Part shown: positions 757 to 9,789 of the stretch, in pieces
How positions within the stretch are numbered: position 1 is the stretch's first letter
Layout: every line of letters starts with the position of its first letter
IMG/VR virus record: IMGVR_UViG_2869976549_000004
Location: 1-14,909 of that record
Reading direction: 5' to 3' (one strand)
Source: a virus
Taxonomy: Duplodnaviria; Heunggongvirae; Uroviricota; Caudoviricetes
Length of the DNA stretch: 14,909 nucleotides
Position numbers and translations under genes: made by a program
The notes under the pieces: generated by a model
Databases searched by the model: none
What the model saw: the letters and a program-made list of their open reading frames with translations, nothing else
What the model was told of the DNA's origin: nothing

Positions 757-769
757 GGTGCATTCCTCA

Positions 770-1437
770 CGATGTGCGAATAAAAAGCCCGGGCATTGCG
801 CCAGAGACATGAGCATCCGGCACCCCGGACAGGGCGCTATATGACCCCGGTAATGAATGCTCTGAACATCCCGTAATGAAAAATTGTGGGGATGCTATAT
901 ACGTTCCGGTGGGAGTACTGGGCACTGAAATCCCCACCGGTCCCAGTCGTGAGCCTCTGTATGACTGCCCCCTGACAAGTCTGATGACTTTATCACCGTC
1001 AGCTTCTCCCTGGTACGCAGCAATAATCAGCCCGCCAATGTCAGGGTCTCCCCATCTGTTGCAGACAGAGCTCGCCACGATTCTGTAAATAATATCTTCT
1101 GTGGTTATATTTATTTTCACCCAGCCAGTCAGTCTGGATATGGGCCAGTAGCAGTAGCGGGTGTGATAAATGGGGCCGTTAATGCCGTAAAAAGTAAGGG
1201 ATTTGGCTCTGTACCTCGGTTCTGTTGTCTCAGGGCGTGCATCAGTCCACCGGATGCTGAGCACCCCTTCAAACCGTGTGTCGGGTATGATGATGTCGTA
1301 GGGGCCAGCAACGGAATATTCACCTGGCAGCGCATTCCTTACCCAGGCCAGGAAATCACTCTTAGTGTCAAAACGGATAACATCTTCAGGCAGAAAAGCA
1401 CACCCAAAGCCGAATGCGCCGGGTATCGCCAGACGGC
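770..1437 (-). pseudogene. C-terminal fragment (about 222 codons) of an unidentified protein, 5' part removed at the IS600 junction
   Basis: The frame is open from the IS600 end (1438) down to TGA at 767..769. The MPVHL start in the ORF track is encoded by the IS600 terminus, not native sequence. Product not recognised; tail-region origin is a guess from position only. Confidence 0.4.
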
Positions 1438-1480
1438 TGAGGTGTACTGGCAATAGCGGACACTACCATTTGTTCTTTTT

Positions 1481-2299
1481 TTAAGCAGCCATCTGATGAT
1501 ATTTTTCCCTGAAGGCTGCCGGGGAGATATTCCCCAGACGAGAGTGACGACGCTGACGATTGTAGAAAATCTCAATGTATTCCCGTATTACTGAGATGGC
1601 TTCATCCCGGTTATTAAAACGATAGTGGCTCAGGCTCTCATTTTTCAGCGTTCCCCAGAAGCTTTCCATCGGAGCGTTGTCGTAACAGTTACCTTTACGC
1701 GACATTGATGTTTTCAGACCAGACTGCTCCTGTATGACCCGGTAATCGTATGCGCAGTACTGTGAACCTCGATCAGAGTGGTGGATTAGCCCGGCAGGTG
1801 GGCGCTGGCTCCTGAGCGCCATAAACAGGGCTTTACCTGTCAGCTCTTTTGTCATGCGCTCTCCCATGGCGTAGCCGACAATTTCGCACGTATAAACATC
1901 TTTGATGCCAGCGAGGTACAACCATCCCTCCTGTGTGGCAACATACGTCAGGTCCGCCACCCAGACCTGATTTGGTGCTGTAGGAGCGAACGTCTGGTTC
2001 AGCAGATTTGGCGCAACTGGCAGATTGTGGTTCGAGTTCGTAGTCGCTCTGAACTTGCGTTTCTGCTTACAGCGTAGCCTTAGCTCCTTACGAAGACGTG
2101 CCAGTCGGTCACGACCAACGATGATGCCATTCTCTGCCAGCTCCGTCTGGAGCCGCCGGGTTCCATATGTTTCGCGAGTGCGGATATGTGCCACCTTAAT
2201 CTCCAGTTTTAGCCGCTCATCACTTTGTTTTCTGTCTGAGGGTTCATGCTGTACCCAGTTGTAATAACCGCTCCTGGATACACCAAATACCTGACACAT
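1481..2299 (-). CDS. IS600 OrfB transposase catalytic part (DDE integrase-like)
   Basis: 272-aa ORF identical to OrfB of copy B. Its upstream OrfA-OrfB fusion region is broken by the IS1 insertion. Confidence 0.85.
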   Translation of the reverse strand: MCQVFGVSRSGYYNWVQHEPSDRKQSDERLKLEIKVAHIRTRETYGTRRLQTELAENGIIVGRDRLARLRKELRLRCKQKRKFRATTNSNHNLPVAPNLLNQTFAPTAPNQVWVADLTYVATQEGWLYLAGIKDVYTCEIVGYAMGERMTKELTGKALFMALRSQRPPAGLIHHSDRGSQYCAYDYRVIQEQSGLKTSMSRKGNCYDNAPMESFWGTLKNESLSHYRFNNRDEAISVIREYIEIFYNRQRRHSRLGNISPAAFREKYHQMAA

Positions 2300-2372
2300 C
2301 GCTTCAATGGGAAATTGGGTGATGCTGCCAACTTACTGATTTAGTGTATGATGGTGTTTTTGAGGTGCTCCA

Positions 2373-2648
2373 GTGGCTTCTGTTTCTATCAGCTGTCCCT
2401 CCTGTTCAGCTACTGACGGGGTGGTGCGTAACGGCAAAAGCACTGCCGGACATCAGCGCTATCTCTGCTCTCACTGCCGTAAAACATGGCAACTGCAGTT
2501 CACTTACACCGCTTCTCAACCCGGTACGCACCAGAAAATCATTGATATGGCCATGAATGGCGTTGGATGCCGGGCAACTGCACGCATTATGGGCGTTGGC
2601 CTCAACACGATTTTACGTCACTTAAAAAACTCAGGCCGCAGTCGGTAA
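2373..2648 (+). CDS. insA: IS1 InsA
   Basis: 91-aa [25 protein letters not shown]..., the zinc-finger/HTH InsA protein of IS1. The A6C frameshift motif (2624..2630) is near its 3' end. Confidence 0.95.
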
Positions 2649-3070
2649 CCTCGCGCATACAGCCGGGCAGTGACGTCATCGTCTGCGCGGAAATGGACGA
2701 ACAGTGGGGCTATGTCGGGGCTAAATCGCGCCAGCGCTGGCTGTTTTACGCGTATGACAGTCTCCGGAAGACGGTTGTTGCGCACGTATTCGGTGAACGC
2801 ACTATGGCGACGCTGGGGCGTCTTATGAGCCTGCTGTCACCCTTTGACGTGGTGATATGGATGACGGATGGCTGGCCGCTGTATGAATCCCGCCTGAAGG
2901 GAAAGCTGCACGTAATCAGCAAGCGATATACGCAGCGAATTGAGCGGCATAACCTGAATCTGAGGCAGCACCTGGCACGGCTGGGACGGAAGTCGCTGTC
3001 GTTCTCAAAATCGGTGGAGCTGCATGACAAAGTCATCGGGCATTATCTGAACATAAAACACTATCAATAA
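2567..3070 (+). CDS. insB: IS1 InsB frame (expressed as InsAB' by -1 frameshift)
   Basis: 167-aa ORF matching IS1 InsB, in the -1 frame relative to insA. Confidence 0.9.
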
Positions 3071-3085
3071 GTTGGAGTCATTACC

Positions 3086-3370
3086 CGACTCCTGTGCAAA
3101 ATACGCTGTTGCTTTTTTTAATATATCTCGCTCAAGGCGAGCTTCATTTAACGCCTTACGCAGTTGCAGAATTTCAGATTCCAGTTCAGCCACCGTGCGG
3201 GAACCAGGAGTACCGAGCCCTTTTCTGGCGGCGGTAACCCATTGTCCTAAAGTGCCTTCAGGAAGAGATAATCGGGAAGCGCCTTCACTGATCGAAAGTT
3301 GATTTTCAGGAACCGTTCTGACAGCTTCGGCTTTGAACTCTTTAGAGTAACGTTGGGTTTTTCTGCTCAT
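3086..3370 (-). pseudogene. IS600 orfA, first 95 codons; 3' end replaced by the IS1 insertion
   Basis: Identical to orfA of copy B up to ...AYFAQES, then diverges into IS1 sequence. Confidence 0.85.
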
Positions 3371-3434
3371 TATTAGCTCCTTCTGATGCCATTCTATTTC
3401 AGGAAGGAGTGTCCGTTAAACTCAGGCTACCTCA

Positions 3435-3471
3435 TTCTGGCGAGTCGTTTTTTGGAGTGTTCGCGGGCTTT
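3435..3471 (-). pseudogene. 37-bp sliver between IS600 copy A and IS21, probably a continuation of the terminase large subunit reading frame
   Basis: After removing IS21 and one copy of the CTTT duplication, the terminase frame continues without a stop (K-A-R-E-H-S-K-K-R-L-A-R) to the IS600 end. Twelve open codons is weak evidence. Confidence 0.3.
3468..3471. repeat. IS21 target-site duplication CTTT (low-coordinate copy)
   Basis: CTTT immediately flanks both IS21 termini (3468..3471 and 5602..5605); 4 bp could match by chance. Confidence 0.5.
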
Positions 3472-3530
3472 TGTCAACGCCACGATGTTTGACCGTTATT
3501 TGCCATTTTCATGCCCGCTAAATACTTTCG

Positions 3531-5500
<1,970 letters not shown>

Positions 5501-5601
5501 GTTGATGTCCTTTCTGGTGTGAGAACCTTAAGGAAACAACATGTTGGGTGGAGCGGACAATCCAAATGGCGAATTACCGTCTTATATCACTGGCGCTGAC
5601 A

Positions 5602-5605
5602 CTTT
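5602..5605. repeat. IS21 target-site duplication CTTT (high-coordinate copy)
   Basis: Matches 3468..3471. Confidence 0.5.
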
Positions 5606-5926
5606 TTCCTCCGTCATCTGAATAATCAGCATATCAGCAGGATCGCAAATCACGTTGTAAATCACCCAGCCGTCAATCAGGCCGATAGTCTTGCCGGTTC
5701 GTGCCGGGCCAACAAATATCACTGCGTCGTATTCACGCGAGGCCAGGCAGTTCATCGGCTCAATAACATACGGTGCCACCAGCGGATCCCACGGGACTGA
5801 GTTCCCTGCCCCCATGGGCACCCGCATATACTGAGCAACGGCATCAGCAACCCGCATTCGTCTCGGTGCGCGAAGGATATAACCTGAATCGGTTCGTGCT
5901 GCCTTTGCGGTTTCCTGATTCAGCAT
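5602..5926 (-). pseudogene. Terminase large subunit (lambda gpA family), N-terminal ~108 codons, truncated by IS21
   Basis: Start ATG at 5926 overlaps the small-subunit stop (TAATG). Contains a P-loop (VGPARTGKT) at the position of lambda gpA's KSARVGYSK. The ORF-track stop at 5582 lies inside the IS21 terminus. Confidence 0.75.
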
Positions 5927-6420
5927 TACTCCTCCTGCTGTAATTCCTCCTCATCATCCGCACCTGCTTCAGTCACCCGCAGGGCTATCTGATCGCGCAG
6001 ATCATCAATAATGGACTGAACACGGCTCACAGCGGCAGGCTGCAGACCGCAGTCACGTTCAAGAATATCCGGTAATGTCTCCAGCACCTGCACGACCGCT
6101 TTTGCCCAGATGGCAAACTCCCGTCTGACATCACTGGCCGGAATGAGTTGTGCCGTTTCCTGTTCGAACTTAAGACGCTCACGTTCAGACTGATACCAGG
6201 CTTTGCGCTCATGCGCGTCCATTTCGCCTTCTGCAACCGGCGGTGGTAATGCCAGAAATGCCGACACAATATCAACCACCCGATAAAGCTTGAGGTTGCT
6301 TTCATGCCCCCCTGCAACGGGTAGATTTTGCAGCCTTGCCGCAGCAGTCTGGCGATGTACACCTGACAGTGCCGCCAGTTGACTGATATTCAGCGTCAGA
6401 TTTTTTAACTCTCGATCCAT
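5926..6420 (-). CDS. Terminase small subunit (Nu1-like)
   Basis: 164 aa; the N-terminal LNISQLAALSGVHRQTAAARLQ region resembles the Nu1 winged-HTH; acidic C-terminus; sits between cos and the large-subunit gene. Confidence 0.75.
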   Translation of the reverse strand: MDRELKNLTLNISQLAALSGVHRQTAAARLQNLPVAGGHESNLKLYRVVDIVSAFLALPPPVAEGEMDAHERKAWYQSERERLKFEQETAQLIPASDVRREFAIWAKAVVQVLETLPDILERDCGLQPAAVSRVQSIIDDLRDQIALRVTEAGADDEEELQQEE

Positions 6421-7235: not shown

Positions 7236-7703
7236 TCATCGAAGGCATTGCGTCCTGATGTATTCCTGAAGCGTTCTCAGTGCTGTTTGGTCGCGGATAA
7301 TTCCGTCCCGGATACCGAGAACGTTTCGTCCAGCAACTGGAGAGAGTTCGACGGTGGCATCATTGCCCATGCCGGAGGCGCTGGAGGTTTCGGCTGAGGA
7401 TGGCACAGGGCATTTTCCTTTGACGAGCACCCGACCACCATTATCAAGCTTGCGCCGAAGAGCATCATTTTCAGCTTTCGCATCAGCTAACTCCTTCGTG
7501 TATTTAGCATCGAGTGCATCAGCATCACGCTGGCGCTGCTGCATGTCAGTAATGGTTGCGTTCGCCAGCTTCAGTTCTCTTGCGTTTTTGTCGCGCTGCT
7601 CTTTGTAGGTAATGGCGTTATCACGGTAATGATTAACAGCCCATGACAGGCGGACGATGATGCAGATAACCAGAGCGGAGATAATCGCGGTGACTCTGCT
7701 CAT
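7236..7703 (-). CDS. Rz: Spanin inner-membrane subunit Rz
   Basis: [17 protein letters not shown]... closely resembles lambda Rz; ATG at 7703 overlaps the R stop (ATGA). ORF track starts 4 codons earlier at 7715. Confidence 0.85.
7277..7483 (-). CDS. Rz1: Spanin outer-membrane lipoprotein Rz1, embedded in Rz in the +1 frame
   Basis: 68 aa with signal peptide and lipobox (LIMVVGCSS) and a proline-rich segment ([11 protein letters not shown]). Confidence 0.8.
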
Positions 7704-8197
7704 TGCTGCCCCCACAAACAGACTTCACGCTCAATCTCACGACGGGTCATCAGCCCTTTCCATTGCTTACCGCCAGCATATGTCCAGCGACGTAGCTGGT
7801 CACATGCGCCTTTGATATAGCCCTGGTTTATTTTGCGAAGAAGCGTCGATGTTCTGAAATTGCCAGCGCCCACGTTGTAAACGAACGAGTAAAGAGCGCC
7901 GCGCGTTGTTTCCGGTATATCGACTTTGATGTACGGGTTAATTTGTCTGGCGACAGTGGCAAGGTCTTTATTCAGGAGAGCTTTGCATTCTGCTTCGGTA
8001 TACGTTTTACCAGGCATGATGTCTTTTCCGGTGTGTCCGTGACATACAGTCCATACACCAATGATATCTTTGTATGGTATGTAGCTGACACCTTCCAGAC
8101 CATCGTTACCACCTGGGCCAGTGATTAACACAGATGCTATAGCAACAGCCCCGCCACCAATAGCAACTGCAACAGCCTTGCGTAATGATGGCGACAT
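7700..8197 (-). CDS. R: SAR endolysin (phage 21 R-type lysozyme)
   Basis: 165 aa; N-terminal Gly/Ala-rich signal-anchor-release domain ([18 protein letters not shown]), then the E-x8-D-x5-T lysozyme motif; strongly resembles phage 21 R as I recall it. Confidence 0.9.
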
Positions 8198-8525: not shown

Positions 8526-8589
8526 TGAGGTAGCCTGAGTTTAACGGACACTCCTTCCTGAAATAGAATGGCATCAGAAGGAGCTAATA

Positions 8590-8892
8590 ATGAGCAGAAA
8601 AACCCAACGTTACTCTAAAGAGTTCAAAGCCGAAGCTGTCAGAACGGTTCCTGAAAATCAACTTTCGATCAGTGAAGGCGCTTCCCGATTATCTCTTCCT
8701 GAAGGCACTTTAGGACAATGGGTTACCGCCGCCAGAAAAGGGCTCGGTACTCCTGGTTCCCGCACGGTGGCTGAACTGGAATCTGAAATTCTGCAACTGC
8801 GTAAGGCGTTAAATGAAGCTCGCCTTGAGCGAGATATATTAAAAAAAGCAACAGCGTATTTTGCACAGGAGTCGCTGAAAAATACGCGTTAA
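8590..8892 (+). CDS. IS600 OrfA (HTH DNA-binding transposase subunit)
   Basis: 100-aa ORF MSRKTQRYSKEFKAEAVRTV... with a leucine-zipper-like C-terminus. Confidence 0.9.
   Translation: MSRKTQRYSKEFKAEAVRTVPENQLSISEGASRLSLPEGTLGQWVTAARKGLGTPGSRTVAELESEILQLRKALNEARLERDILKKATAYFAQESLKNTR
8841..8847 (+). other. Programmed -1 ribosomal frameshift heptamer A-AAA-AAA (OrfA to OrfAB fusion)
   Basis: A7 run in the orfA zero frame; orfB is in the -1 frame. The same motif is at 13470..13476 in copy C and as T7 at 3113..3119 in copy A. Confidence 0.6.
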
Positions 8893-8927
8893 TCGAACAA
8901 TGGCGACAACAATTTCCCATTGAAGCG

Positions 8928-9746
8928 ATGTGTCAGGTATTTGGTGTATCCAGGAGCGGTTATTACAACTGGGTACAGCATGAACCCTCAGACAGAAAAC
9001 AAAGTGATGAGCGGCTAAAACTGGAGATTAAGGTGGCACATATCCGCACTCGCGAAACATATGGAACCCGGCGGCTCCAGACGGAGCTGGCAGAGAATGG
9101 CATCATTGTTGGTCGTGACCGACTGGCACGTCTTCGTAAGGAGCTAAGGCTACGCTGTAAGCAGAAACGCAAGTTCAGAGCGACTACGAACTCGAACCAC
9201 AATCTGCCAGTTGCGCCAAATCTGCTGAACCAGACGTTCGCTCCTACAGCACCAAATCAGGTCTGGGTGGCGGACCTGACGTATGTTGCCACACAGGAGG
9301 GATGGTTGTACCTCGCTGGCATCAAAGATGTTTATACGTGCGAAATTGTCGGCTACGCCATGGGAGAGCGCATGACAAAAGAGCTGACAGGTAAAGCCCT
9401 GTTTATGGCGCTCAGGAGCCAGCGCCCACCTGCCGGGCTAATCCACCACTCTGATCGAGGTTCACAGTACTGCGCATACGATTACCGGGTCATACAGGAG
9501 CAGTCTGGTCTGAAAACATCAATGTCGCGTAAAGGTAACTGTTACGACAACGCTCCGATGGAAAGCTTCTGGGGAACGCTGAAAAATGAGAGCCTGAGCC
9601 ACTATCGTTTTAATAACCGGGATGAAGCCATCTCAGTAATACGGGAATACATTGAGATTTTCTACAATCGTCAGCGTCGTCACTCTCGTCTGGGGAATAT
9701 CTCCCCGGCAGCCTTCAGGGAAAAATATCATCAGATGGCTGCTTAA
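8928..9746 (+). CDS. IS600 OrfB (DDE catalytic domain), expressed as OrfAB fusion
   Basis: 272-aa ORF in the -1 frame relative to orfA. Confidence 0.9.
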   Translation: MCQVFGVSRSGYYNWVQHEPSDRKQSDERLKLEIKVAHIRTRETYGTRRLQTELAENGIIVGRDRLARLRKELRLRCKQKRKFRATTNSNHNLPVAPNLLNQTFAPTAPNQVWVADLTYVATQEGWLYLAGIKDVYTCEIVGYAMGERMTKELTGKALFMALRSQRPPAGLIHHSDRGSQYCAYDYRVIQEQSGLKTSMSRKGNCYDNAPMESFWGTLKNESLSHYRFNNRDEAISVIREYIEIFYNRQRRHSRLGNISPAAFREKYHQMAA

Positions 9747-9789
9747 AAAAAGAACAAATGGTAGTGTCCGCTATTGCCAGTACACCTCA

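Follow-up and report, generated by a model that had tools for sequence, protein, structure and literature searches.

A complete IS1 (IS1a) was found nested in an IS600 element (copy A) from which 35 bp were missing exactly where IS1 sits, and the IS1 was not flanked by a target duplication. The nest lies in the window, the whole stretch of 14,909 nucleotides that was analysed, which matched the chromosome of Shigella sonnei 866 (CP022672.1; GCA_003265245.1) with 100% identity over all 14,909 bases. With modest confidence, the nest is read here as a normal IS1 insertion next to which an IS1-mediated adjacent deletion would then have removed 44 bp.

The nesting had been proposed in a first-pass annotation made from the letters, and sequence reading, a repeat finder and alignment all found it to be exact. 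The repeat finder returned three copies of a 1264-bp element and two copies of a 768-bp element in the window (Table 1). The right arm of copy A (1438-2317) was the reverse complement of 8910-9789 over 880 nt, by repeat finder and sequence reading, and the left arm (3086-3434) was the reverse complement of 8526-8874 over 349 nt with zero mismatches, by repeat finder and alignment. Chance was ruled out for these IS600 matches, which are kilobase-long at about 99.9% identity. Between the two arms, at 2318-3085, IS1a started with GGTGATGCTGCC and ended with GGAGTCATTACC.

Copy A (1438..3434) was reverse-complemented, stripped of IS1 (leaving 1229 nt) and globally aligned with copy B (8526..9789; 1264 nt), which gave one mismatch and one gap. 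The mismatch fell at IS600 position 582 (C in copy A versus T in copy B) and the gap was 35 nt long, covering IS600 positions 350-384, or window 8875-8909 (CTGAAAAATACGCGTTAATCGAACAATGGCGACAA). Global alignment with copy C gave two mismatches and the identical 35-nt gap. A single gap at this place against both B and C is the loss that had been claimed as equivalent to 8875..8909, and the alignment held no 9-bp repeat. The break points of IS1 are fixed, as the adjoining IS600 bases (T on the left, G on the right) differ from the IS1 terminal bases; the context reads TTCAATGGGAAATTG, then IS1, then CGACTCCTGTGCAAA. The first-pass statement that IS1 has no flanking duplication was borne out as well: no direct repeat of 9 bp (or of 8-14 bp) was found around IS1a, whose 9-bp flanks, GGGAAATTG and CGACTCCTG, are unrelated and share no repeat. 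The absent IS600 DNA begins precisely at an IS1 terminus, and the IS1 was retained intact. The undeleted target is known from the paralogous copies B and C in the window and from the orthologous IS600 of seven sister genomes (L017-L022 and L024).

Table 1. Features of the window, with coordinates counted from its first letter.
Feature	Position	Strand	Description
Tail-fibre-like remnant	767-1437		228 aa; in minus-strand order, after IS600 copy A
IS600 copy A, whole	1438-3434	-	Split by IS1
IS600 copy A, right (IRR-side) arm	1438..2317	-	IS600 positions 385-1264
orfB ORF of copy A	1481-2299	-	Intact
IS1a	2318..3085	+	IS1; 768 bp, complete, both terminal inverted repeats
insA of IS1a	2373-2648	+	
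InsAB' reading of IS1a	2373 to 3070	+	
A6C slip site of IS1a	2624-2630	+	
Chimeric orfA* of copy A	3005..3370	-	121 aa: 95 OrfA residues and 26 residues from the IS1 right end (translation)
IS600 copy A, left (IRL-side) arm	3086..3434	-	IS600 positions 1-349
A7 run of copy A	3113-3119	-	
orfA start of copy A	3370	-	
Terminase large-subunit remnant	3435..3471	-	37 bp; between copy A IRL and IS21
IS21	3472..5601	-	istA 4328-5500, istB 3531-4331; complete, in terminase large-subunit gene
Large terminase subunit, first 114 codons			In minus-strand order, between small terminase subunit and IS21
Small terminase subunit	5926-6420		In minus-strand order, after the lysis genes
Lysis genes	lysozyme 7700-8197		Including lysozyme; in minus-strand order, after IS600 copy B
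IS600 copy B	8526..9789	+	Intact 1264-bp reference; 3-bp duplication CAC/CAC
orfA of copy B	8590-8892	+	Stop codon 8890-8892
A7 run of copy B	8841-8847	+	
35 bp absent from copy A, present in copy B	8875..8909	+	IS600 positions 350-384, CTGAAAAATACGCGTTAATCGAACAATGGCGACAA
orfB ATG of copy B	8928	+	
Late regulators	about 10470-11910		First in minus-strand order
IS1b	12248-13015		Second IS1 copy; 2 nt different from IS1a, InsAB' identical (232 aa)
IS600 copy C	13155..14418	+	1264 bp; OrfAB intact, 2 amino-acid differences from copy B

Both elements are ordinary members of their families. InsAB' of IS1a, reconstructed by a -1 slip at A6C, was 232 aa long and scored 243 bits against the NCBIfam IS1 family transposase (transpos_IS1; cut-off 100 bits). 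Comparison of the IS1a ends found the IS1-type length of about 768 bp and terminal inverted repeats, the consensus of which we take to be imperfect, about 23 bp long, and to read GGTGATGCTGCCAACTTACTGAT and GGTAATGACTCCAACTTATTGAT. A simple IS1 insertion normally carries a 9-bp target duplication (rarely 8-14 bp), which marks a fresh insertion and not family membership. IS1a is an IS1 by the characters of the family, yet its context, without the duplication, is unlike that of a simple insertion. OrfAB of copy B was 385 aa long by a -1 slip at A7 and scored 412.6 bits against the NCBIfam IS3 family transposase (transpos_IS3; cut-off 160 bits), and the source record calls a 385-aa product across both intact IS600 copies, B and C. 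The IS600 elements have TG...CA termini, an orfB in the -1 frame relative to orfA (0) and, where intact, a DDE (rve) OrfAB, as in the IS3 family. DNA of 99% identity appears in RefSeq E. coli records as "IS3-like element IS600" (family transposase) and "IS1-like element IS1A".

A 3-bp target duplication was found at copy B (CAC/CAC) and at neither copy A (GGC/TTC) nor copy C (TAG/TTG). The missing duplications of copies A and C fit later rearrangement. An inversion between these two copies was considered as their cause and was rejected, as the triplets GGC/TTC and TAG/TTG do not fit it. The second IS1 of the window, IS1b, was also without a 9-bp duplication (flanks GAGACAAAA and AACTCATCT), so deletion or recombination occurred there too. 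An exchange of flanks between the two IS1 copies was rejected, as no similarity was seen among their four 9-bp flanks in either orientation.

The window belongs to a decayed lambdoid prophage. IS21 interrupts the terminase large-subunit gene and has a 4-bp target duplication, CTTT (3468-3471 and 5602-5605). The 37-bp remnant of that gene matched positions 10816-10852 of the terminase genes in intact prophages (L001-L009) at 100%. Copy A bridges a deletion of phage morphogenesis genes, joining the 37-bp terminase remnant to the tail-fibre-like remnant; together with the missing 3-bp duplication, this bridging therefore indicates that copy A had an earlier history of rearrangement. Only one complete genome, that of strain 866, had the 114-aa truncated terminase, as did 13 short draft contigs, and the IS21-truncated terminase is a lineage marker. 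The E. coli prophage contigs that have the small terminase subunit protein number in the tens of thousands, and the protein is of no use as a marker of the locus.

Since the 228-aa ORF begins within the copy A IRR, it tags this specific IS600/flank junction. By exact look-up, it was present in 16 collection blocks in which the longest carrying contig exceeded 1 Mb. The sister S. sonnei genomes aligned were L017-L022 and L024; nine further places, with neighbour genes like those of L017, L019 or L022, lay outside the alignment. In seven of the seven aligned complete genomes, the resident IS600 at the shared junction was unbroken from position 88 to position 1264, positions 350-384 included, and held no IS1. 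Because these seven genomes keep the IS600 continuous and free of IS1, the insertion and the 35-bp loss look, most simply, private to the 866 lineage, and the nest would be a strain-specific marker for that lineage of S. sonnei.

The allele of the copy A right arm at position 582 (C) is that of the resident IS600 in the sister genomes. At positions 106 and 126, the IRL arm of copy A reads C and the resident copies of the sister genomes read T, so an exchange with another IS600 copy is possible. In the sister genomes (locus about 900-4016), a second, inverted IS600 with the duplication GTT/GTT was found inside IS21, and a deletion has joined IS21 (window 4504) to IS600 position 88 through a 3-bp microhomology, TAC. 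Since the rest of the sister locus is collinear with the window, IS600 was complete in the shared ancestor, which had the 37 bp and IS21 as well but no IS1.

Other differences were observed among these strains. The 675-bp IS21 fragment between the inverted IS600 pair occurred in both orientations (L017 versus L020 and L024), which makes it an invertible segment. The IS600 SNPs at positions 106, 126 and 274 were shuffled between copies in the sister strains, which suggests gene conversion. At about window position 388, strain 866 was without 8 bp that the sister genomes have (GACGTGAT in L017, 5067-5074). This loss is probably a strain-specific frameshift; its site lies within a DUF4376 gene of 207 aa, which the sister genomes have among their called genes and 866 does not.

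Under the favoured history of insertion and then adjacent deletion, a resident and once complete copy A would have been struck by IS1 in the lineage leading to 866, and the insertion would have produced a 9-bp duplication of IS600 341-349 or 385-393. In a second step, a transposase-mediated intramolecular adjacent deletion would have taken out the 44 bp next to one IS1 end. Such a deletion would remove one copy of the 9-bp duplication and 35 bp of IS600 and would leave IS1 intact and precisely bounded. We infer the order of these events and the role of the transposase in the copy A deletion. Since the duplication is absent and 35 bp of the target are missing, a second step after insertion is called for, and simple insertion alone is excluded.

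Replicative (intramolecular) adjacent deletion by IS1 is classical knowledge, as in the gal/IS1 deletions; Reif and Saedler in 1975 and Turlan and Chandler in 1995 are reportedly the classical work on it. Adjacent deletion is favoured for copy A because the loss starts, to the base, where an intact IS1 ends, because the microhomology at the possible deletion joints, as read from the flanks, is only 0-2 bp, because one insertion is needed and not two, and because deletions abutting IS1 are documented (PMC10569738). The documented cases in E. coli include deletions of 11-66 kb immediately adjacent to IS1 (PMC10569738). Copy A is like the gal/IS1 deletions and those in PMC10569738 in that IS1 is intact, the loss runs from its exact terminus and the duplication is lost. 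It is unlike them in scale (44 bp, 35 net, versus kilobases), in its victim, which is an insertion sequence and not a host gene, and in that its intermediate is deduced. Two points stand against adjacent deletion: a target 44 bp from the IS1 end is unusually close, and the progenitor was not found in the collections scanned. We know of no measured lower limit of the target distance for IS1.

The conclusion of the first-pass annotation, that the cause was adjacent deletion or recombination and not simple insertion, stood up against other nests of IS1 in IS600, in which simple insertions keep the duplication; sequence cannot separate its two candidates. In the S. dysenteriae plasmid CP026829.1 (L028), an IS1 in IS600 was flanked by a 9-bp duplication of positions 83-91, with no loss of IS600. 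In the E. coli plasmid CP065616.1 (L027), IS600 positions 170-176 were found on both sides of IS1 with two unaligned bases beside it, an apparent duplication of about 9 bp, again with every IS600 base retained. As in copy A, IS1 interrupts the orfA part of IS600 in both plasmids; unlike them, copy A has no duplication and 35 bp are gone. The relative orientation is the same as in copy A but is uninformative, as the search joins pieces on one strand only. In plasmid pEntH10407 of ETEC H10407 (L029, NC_013507.1; locus about 2022/2023), IS1 abuts IS600 position 8 with no duplication, so deletion or recombination took place at an IS1 end there. That case differs from copy A, which keeps both arms, in that the whole other side of IS600 is missing. 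From these nests it follows that IS1 enters IS600 repeatedly and that its simple insertions are canonical; the joint in copy A is not simple. The IS1-bounded IS600 truncation of L029 was located about 1.5 kb from eltAB, on the heat-labile toxin plasmid.

The copy A/IS1 joints were also searched for elsewhere. Their junction 28-mers, CAATGGGAAATTGGGTGATGCTGCCAAC and GGAGTCATTACCCGACTCCTGTGCAAAA, had 0 exact matches in species-representative genomes, viral contigs and JGI metagenomes, collections with few or no Shigella chromosomes, so this result is weak. Junction-spanning queries of 80 bp and 1168 bp against 72,556 plasmids (PLSDB) and 20,395 complete-genome E. coli records gave only multi-piece matches of longer span, none with the same junction. 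Under the insertion model, a progenitor would have GGGAAATTGTTGTCGCC directly after the IS1 right end, or CGACTCCTG directly before the IS1 left end. The plasmid, E. coli, species-representative, viral and metagenome collections, in which Shigella chromosomes are barely represented, yielded no such progenitor, with IS1 and IS600 341-349 or 385-393 duplicated as 9 bp.

The final sequence is identical under adjacent deletion, under recombination between two IS1 copies and under a transposase-independent deletion. The second of these would be a homologous crossover between two like-oriented IS1 elements, one at IS600 341-349 and the other at 385-393, in one or two IS600 copies. Such a crossover would leave position 385 on one side of IS1 and position 349 on the other, with loss of 35 bp and both duplications, exactly the sequence observed. 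The route gains support from the crowding of the DNA with both elements (three IS600 and two IS1 in 15 kb) and from the 229-348 IS insertions per Shigella reference chromosome (PMC7373316). IS1 has entered IS600 repeatedly elsewhere, and IS600 alleles are mosaic among the sister strains. Recombination between insertion sequences is also indicated as active in the region because IS1b and IS600 copies A and C are all without duplications. We nevertheless consider this route unlikely, as it requires two independent same-orientation IS1 insertions 44 bp apart and there is no sign of a hot spot for IS1 here, the other nests being at IS600 8, 83-91 and about 170-176. The junction 28-mers, which would be expected in the progenitors of this route too, were absent from the collections, where Shigella chromosomes are few or none.

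The same end product would also be expected from a canonical IS1 insertion followed by a small transposase-independent deletion through illegitimate recombination or slippage, or from an aberrant one-step insertion in which the ends were joined 35 bp apart. Transposase-independent deletions do occur at this locus, as the TAC joint of IS600 position 88 to IS21 in the sister genomes demonstrates. In copy A, however, the loss starts at the exact IS1 end, a hallmark of a transposase joint, a random deletion would rarely leave that end whole to the base, and the microhomology is just 0-2 bp; this explanation is accordingly held to be rather improbable. Slippage driven by microhomology is not favoured, with only 0-2 bp shared at the possible joints. 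To our knowledge, no one-step loss of target has been described for IS1. Two further conjectures are compatible with the sequence and are very doubtful: a one-step aberrant IS1 insertion whose ends attacked 35 bp apart, perhaps guided by the hairpin-forming stretch past the IS600 slippery site, or a locus whose OrfA chimera and lone OrfB might dampen IS600 transposition in trans.

The polarity of the event could in principle be reversed, the IS600::IS1 nest being ancestral and the IS600 of the sister genomes having been made whole again by gene conversion, with the inverted IS600 675 bp away as donor. The sister genomes do have that second inverted IS600, the shuffled SNPs 106/126/274 and the intervening segment in both orientations. 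Such a reversal is highly improbable: in every other complete genome read, 768 bp would have had to be removed precisely and 35 bp put back, and it gives no origin for the 35-bp loss. Repeats are the usual place of misassembly, but an assembly artefact in CP022672 is scarcely credible, since the composite measures only 2 kb and would be spanned by single reads of the 20-kb-library PacBio data (107x; HGAP3 and Quiver, with Pilon polishing by Illumina MiSeq reads), both junctions are clean and IS1 is full length.

The loss of the OrfAB fusion of copy A, as stated in the first-pass annotation, was confirmed by translation: a -1 slip at the copy A A7 run yields a product that ends after 96 aa. The break had been put 30 nt past A7, an approximate but fair figure; the measured distance is 27 nt after the last A, as the break follows 8874. 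The coding potential of copy A comprises the 96-aa frameshift product, the 121-aa OrfA/IS1 chimera and OrfB alone, and no OrfAB. Its orfA and orfB are now separated by 768 bp, and since 35 is not divisible by three, the fusion would stay broken even if IS1 were lost precisely. The 121-aa chimera had no record in the gene-position collection by exact look-up, and the source record (L023) calls no genes across the whole IS600/IS1 composite.

In intact IS600, the A-AAA-AAA heptamer (8841-8847) sits in the orfA frame, and RNA folding predicted a 9-bp stem 6 nt past this slippery site (8854-8862 pairing with 8879-8887), with weak statistics (z = -1.3 for a 75-nt stretch). IS600 is like the IS3-family frameshifters IS911, IS3 and IS150 in its orfA and orfB frames (0/-1), its heptamer and its predicted hairpin 6 nt downstream. 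The placement of the hairpin fits IS3-family stimulators (PMC5009743), and the hairpin may act as a frameshift stimulator. The stimulator of IS911 is a three-way junction (PMC5009743), unlike the hairpin predicted, at z = -1.3, in IS600. The IS1 break falls in the loop of the predicted hairpin, and the 35-bp loss takes its 3' arm (8879-8887) together with the orfA stop codon.

Both IS600 ends of copy A are intact and the composite measures 1997 bp. The OrfAB fusion product is the transposase in the IS3 family (PMC5009743). The composite could in principle be moved only by OrfAB from other IS600 copies, and probably inefficiently. A dependence of copy A on B or C in trans had been proposed. The part of this that stands is that copy A cannot make its own OrfAB; dependence on B or C is over-specific and probably overstated. 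Shigella reference chromosomes have 229-348 IS insertions each, with IS600 among the expanded elements (PMC7373316), so many other IS600 donors exist. Trans rescue would be inefficient because, for the transposase of IS911, also of the IS3 family, activity in cis exceeds that in trans about 200-fold (PMC5009743). For annotation, copy A is a non-autonomous IS600 remnant that bears an intact IS1.

A nested insertion sequence with an IS-bounded micro-deletion is an already known kind of event, and its small size is the only slightly unusual feature. The case is ordinary wear in an IS-crowded Shigella genome and carries little weight beyond bookkeeping. It does provide a clean, base-resolved example of Shigella insertion sequences disabling one another and eroding prophages. 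It also suggests that deletions bounded by IS1 can measure as little as 44 bp, with a presumed role for the transposase.

A 7-bp inverted repeat was observed across the IS1 right end and the IS600 flank at window 3074-3092 (GGAGTC in IS1, GACTCC in IS600), and a small hairpin is predicted there in the chimeric orfA transcript. The repeat is probably due to chance, though the flank is similar to the IS1 terminal repeat at positions 7-12.
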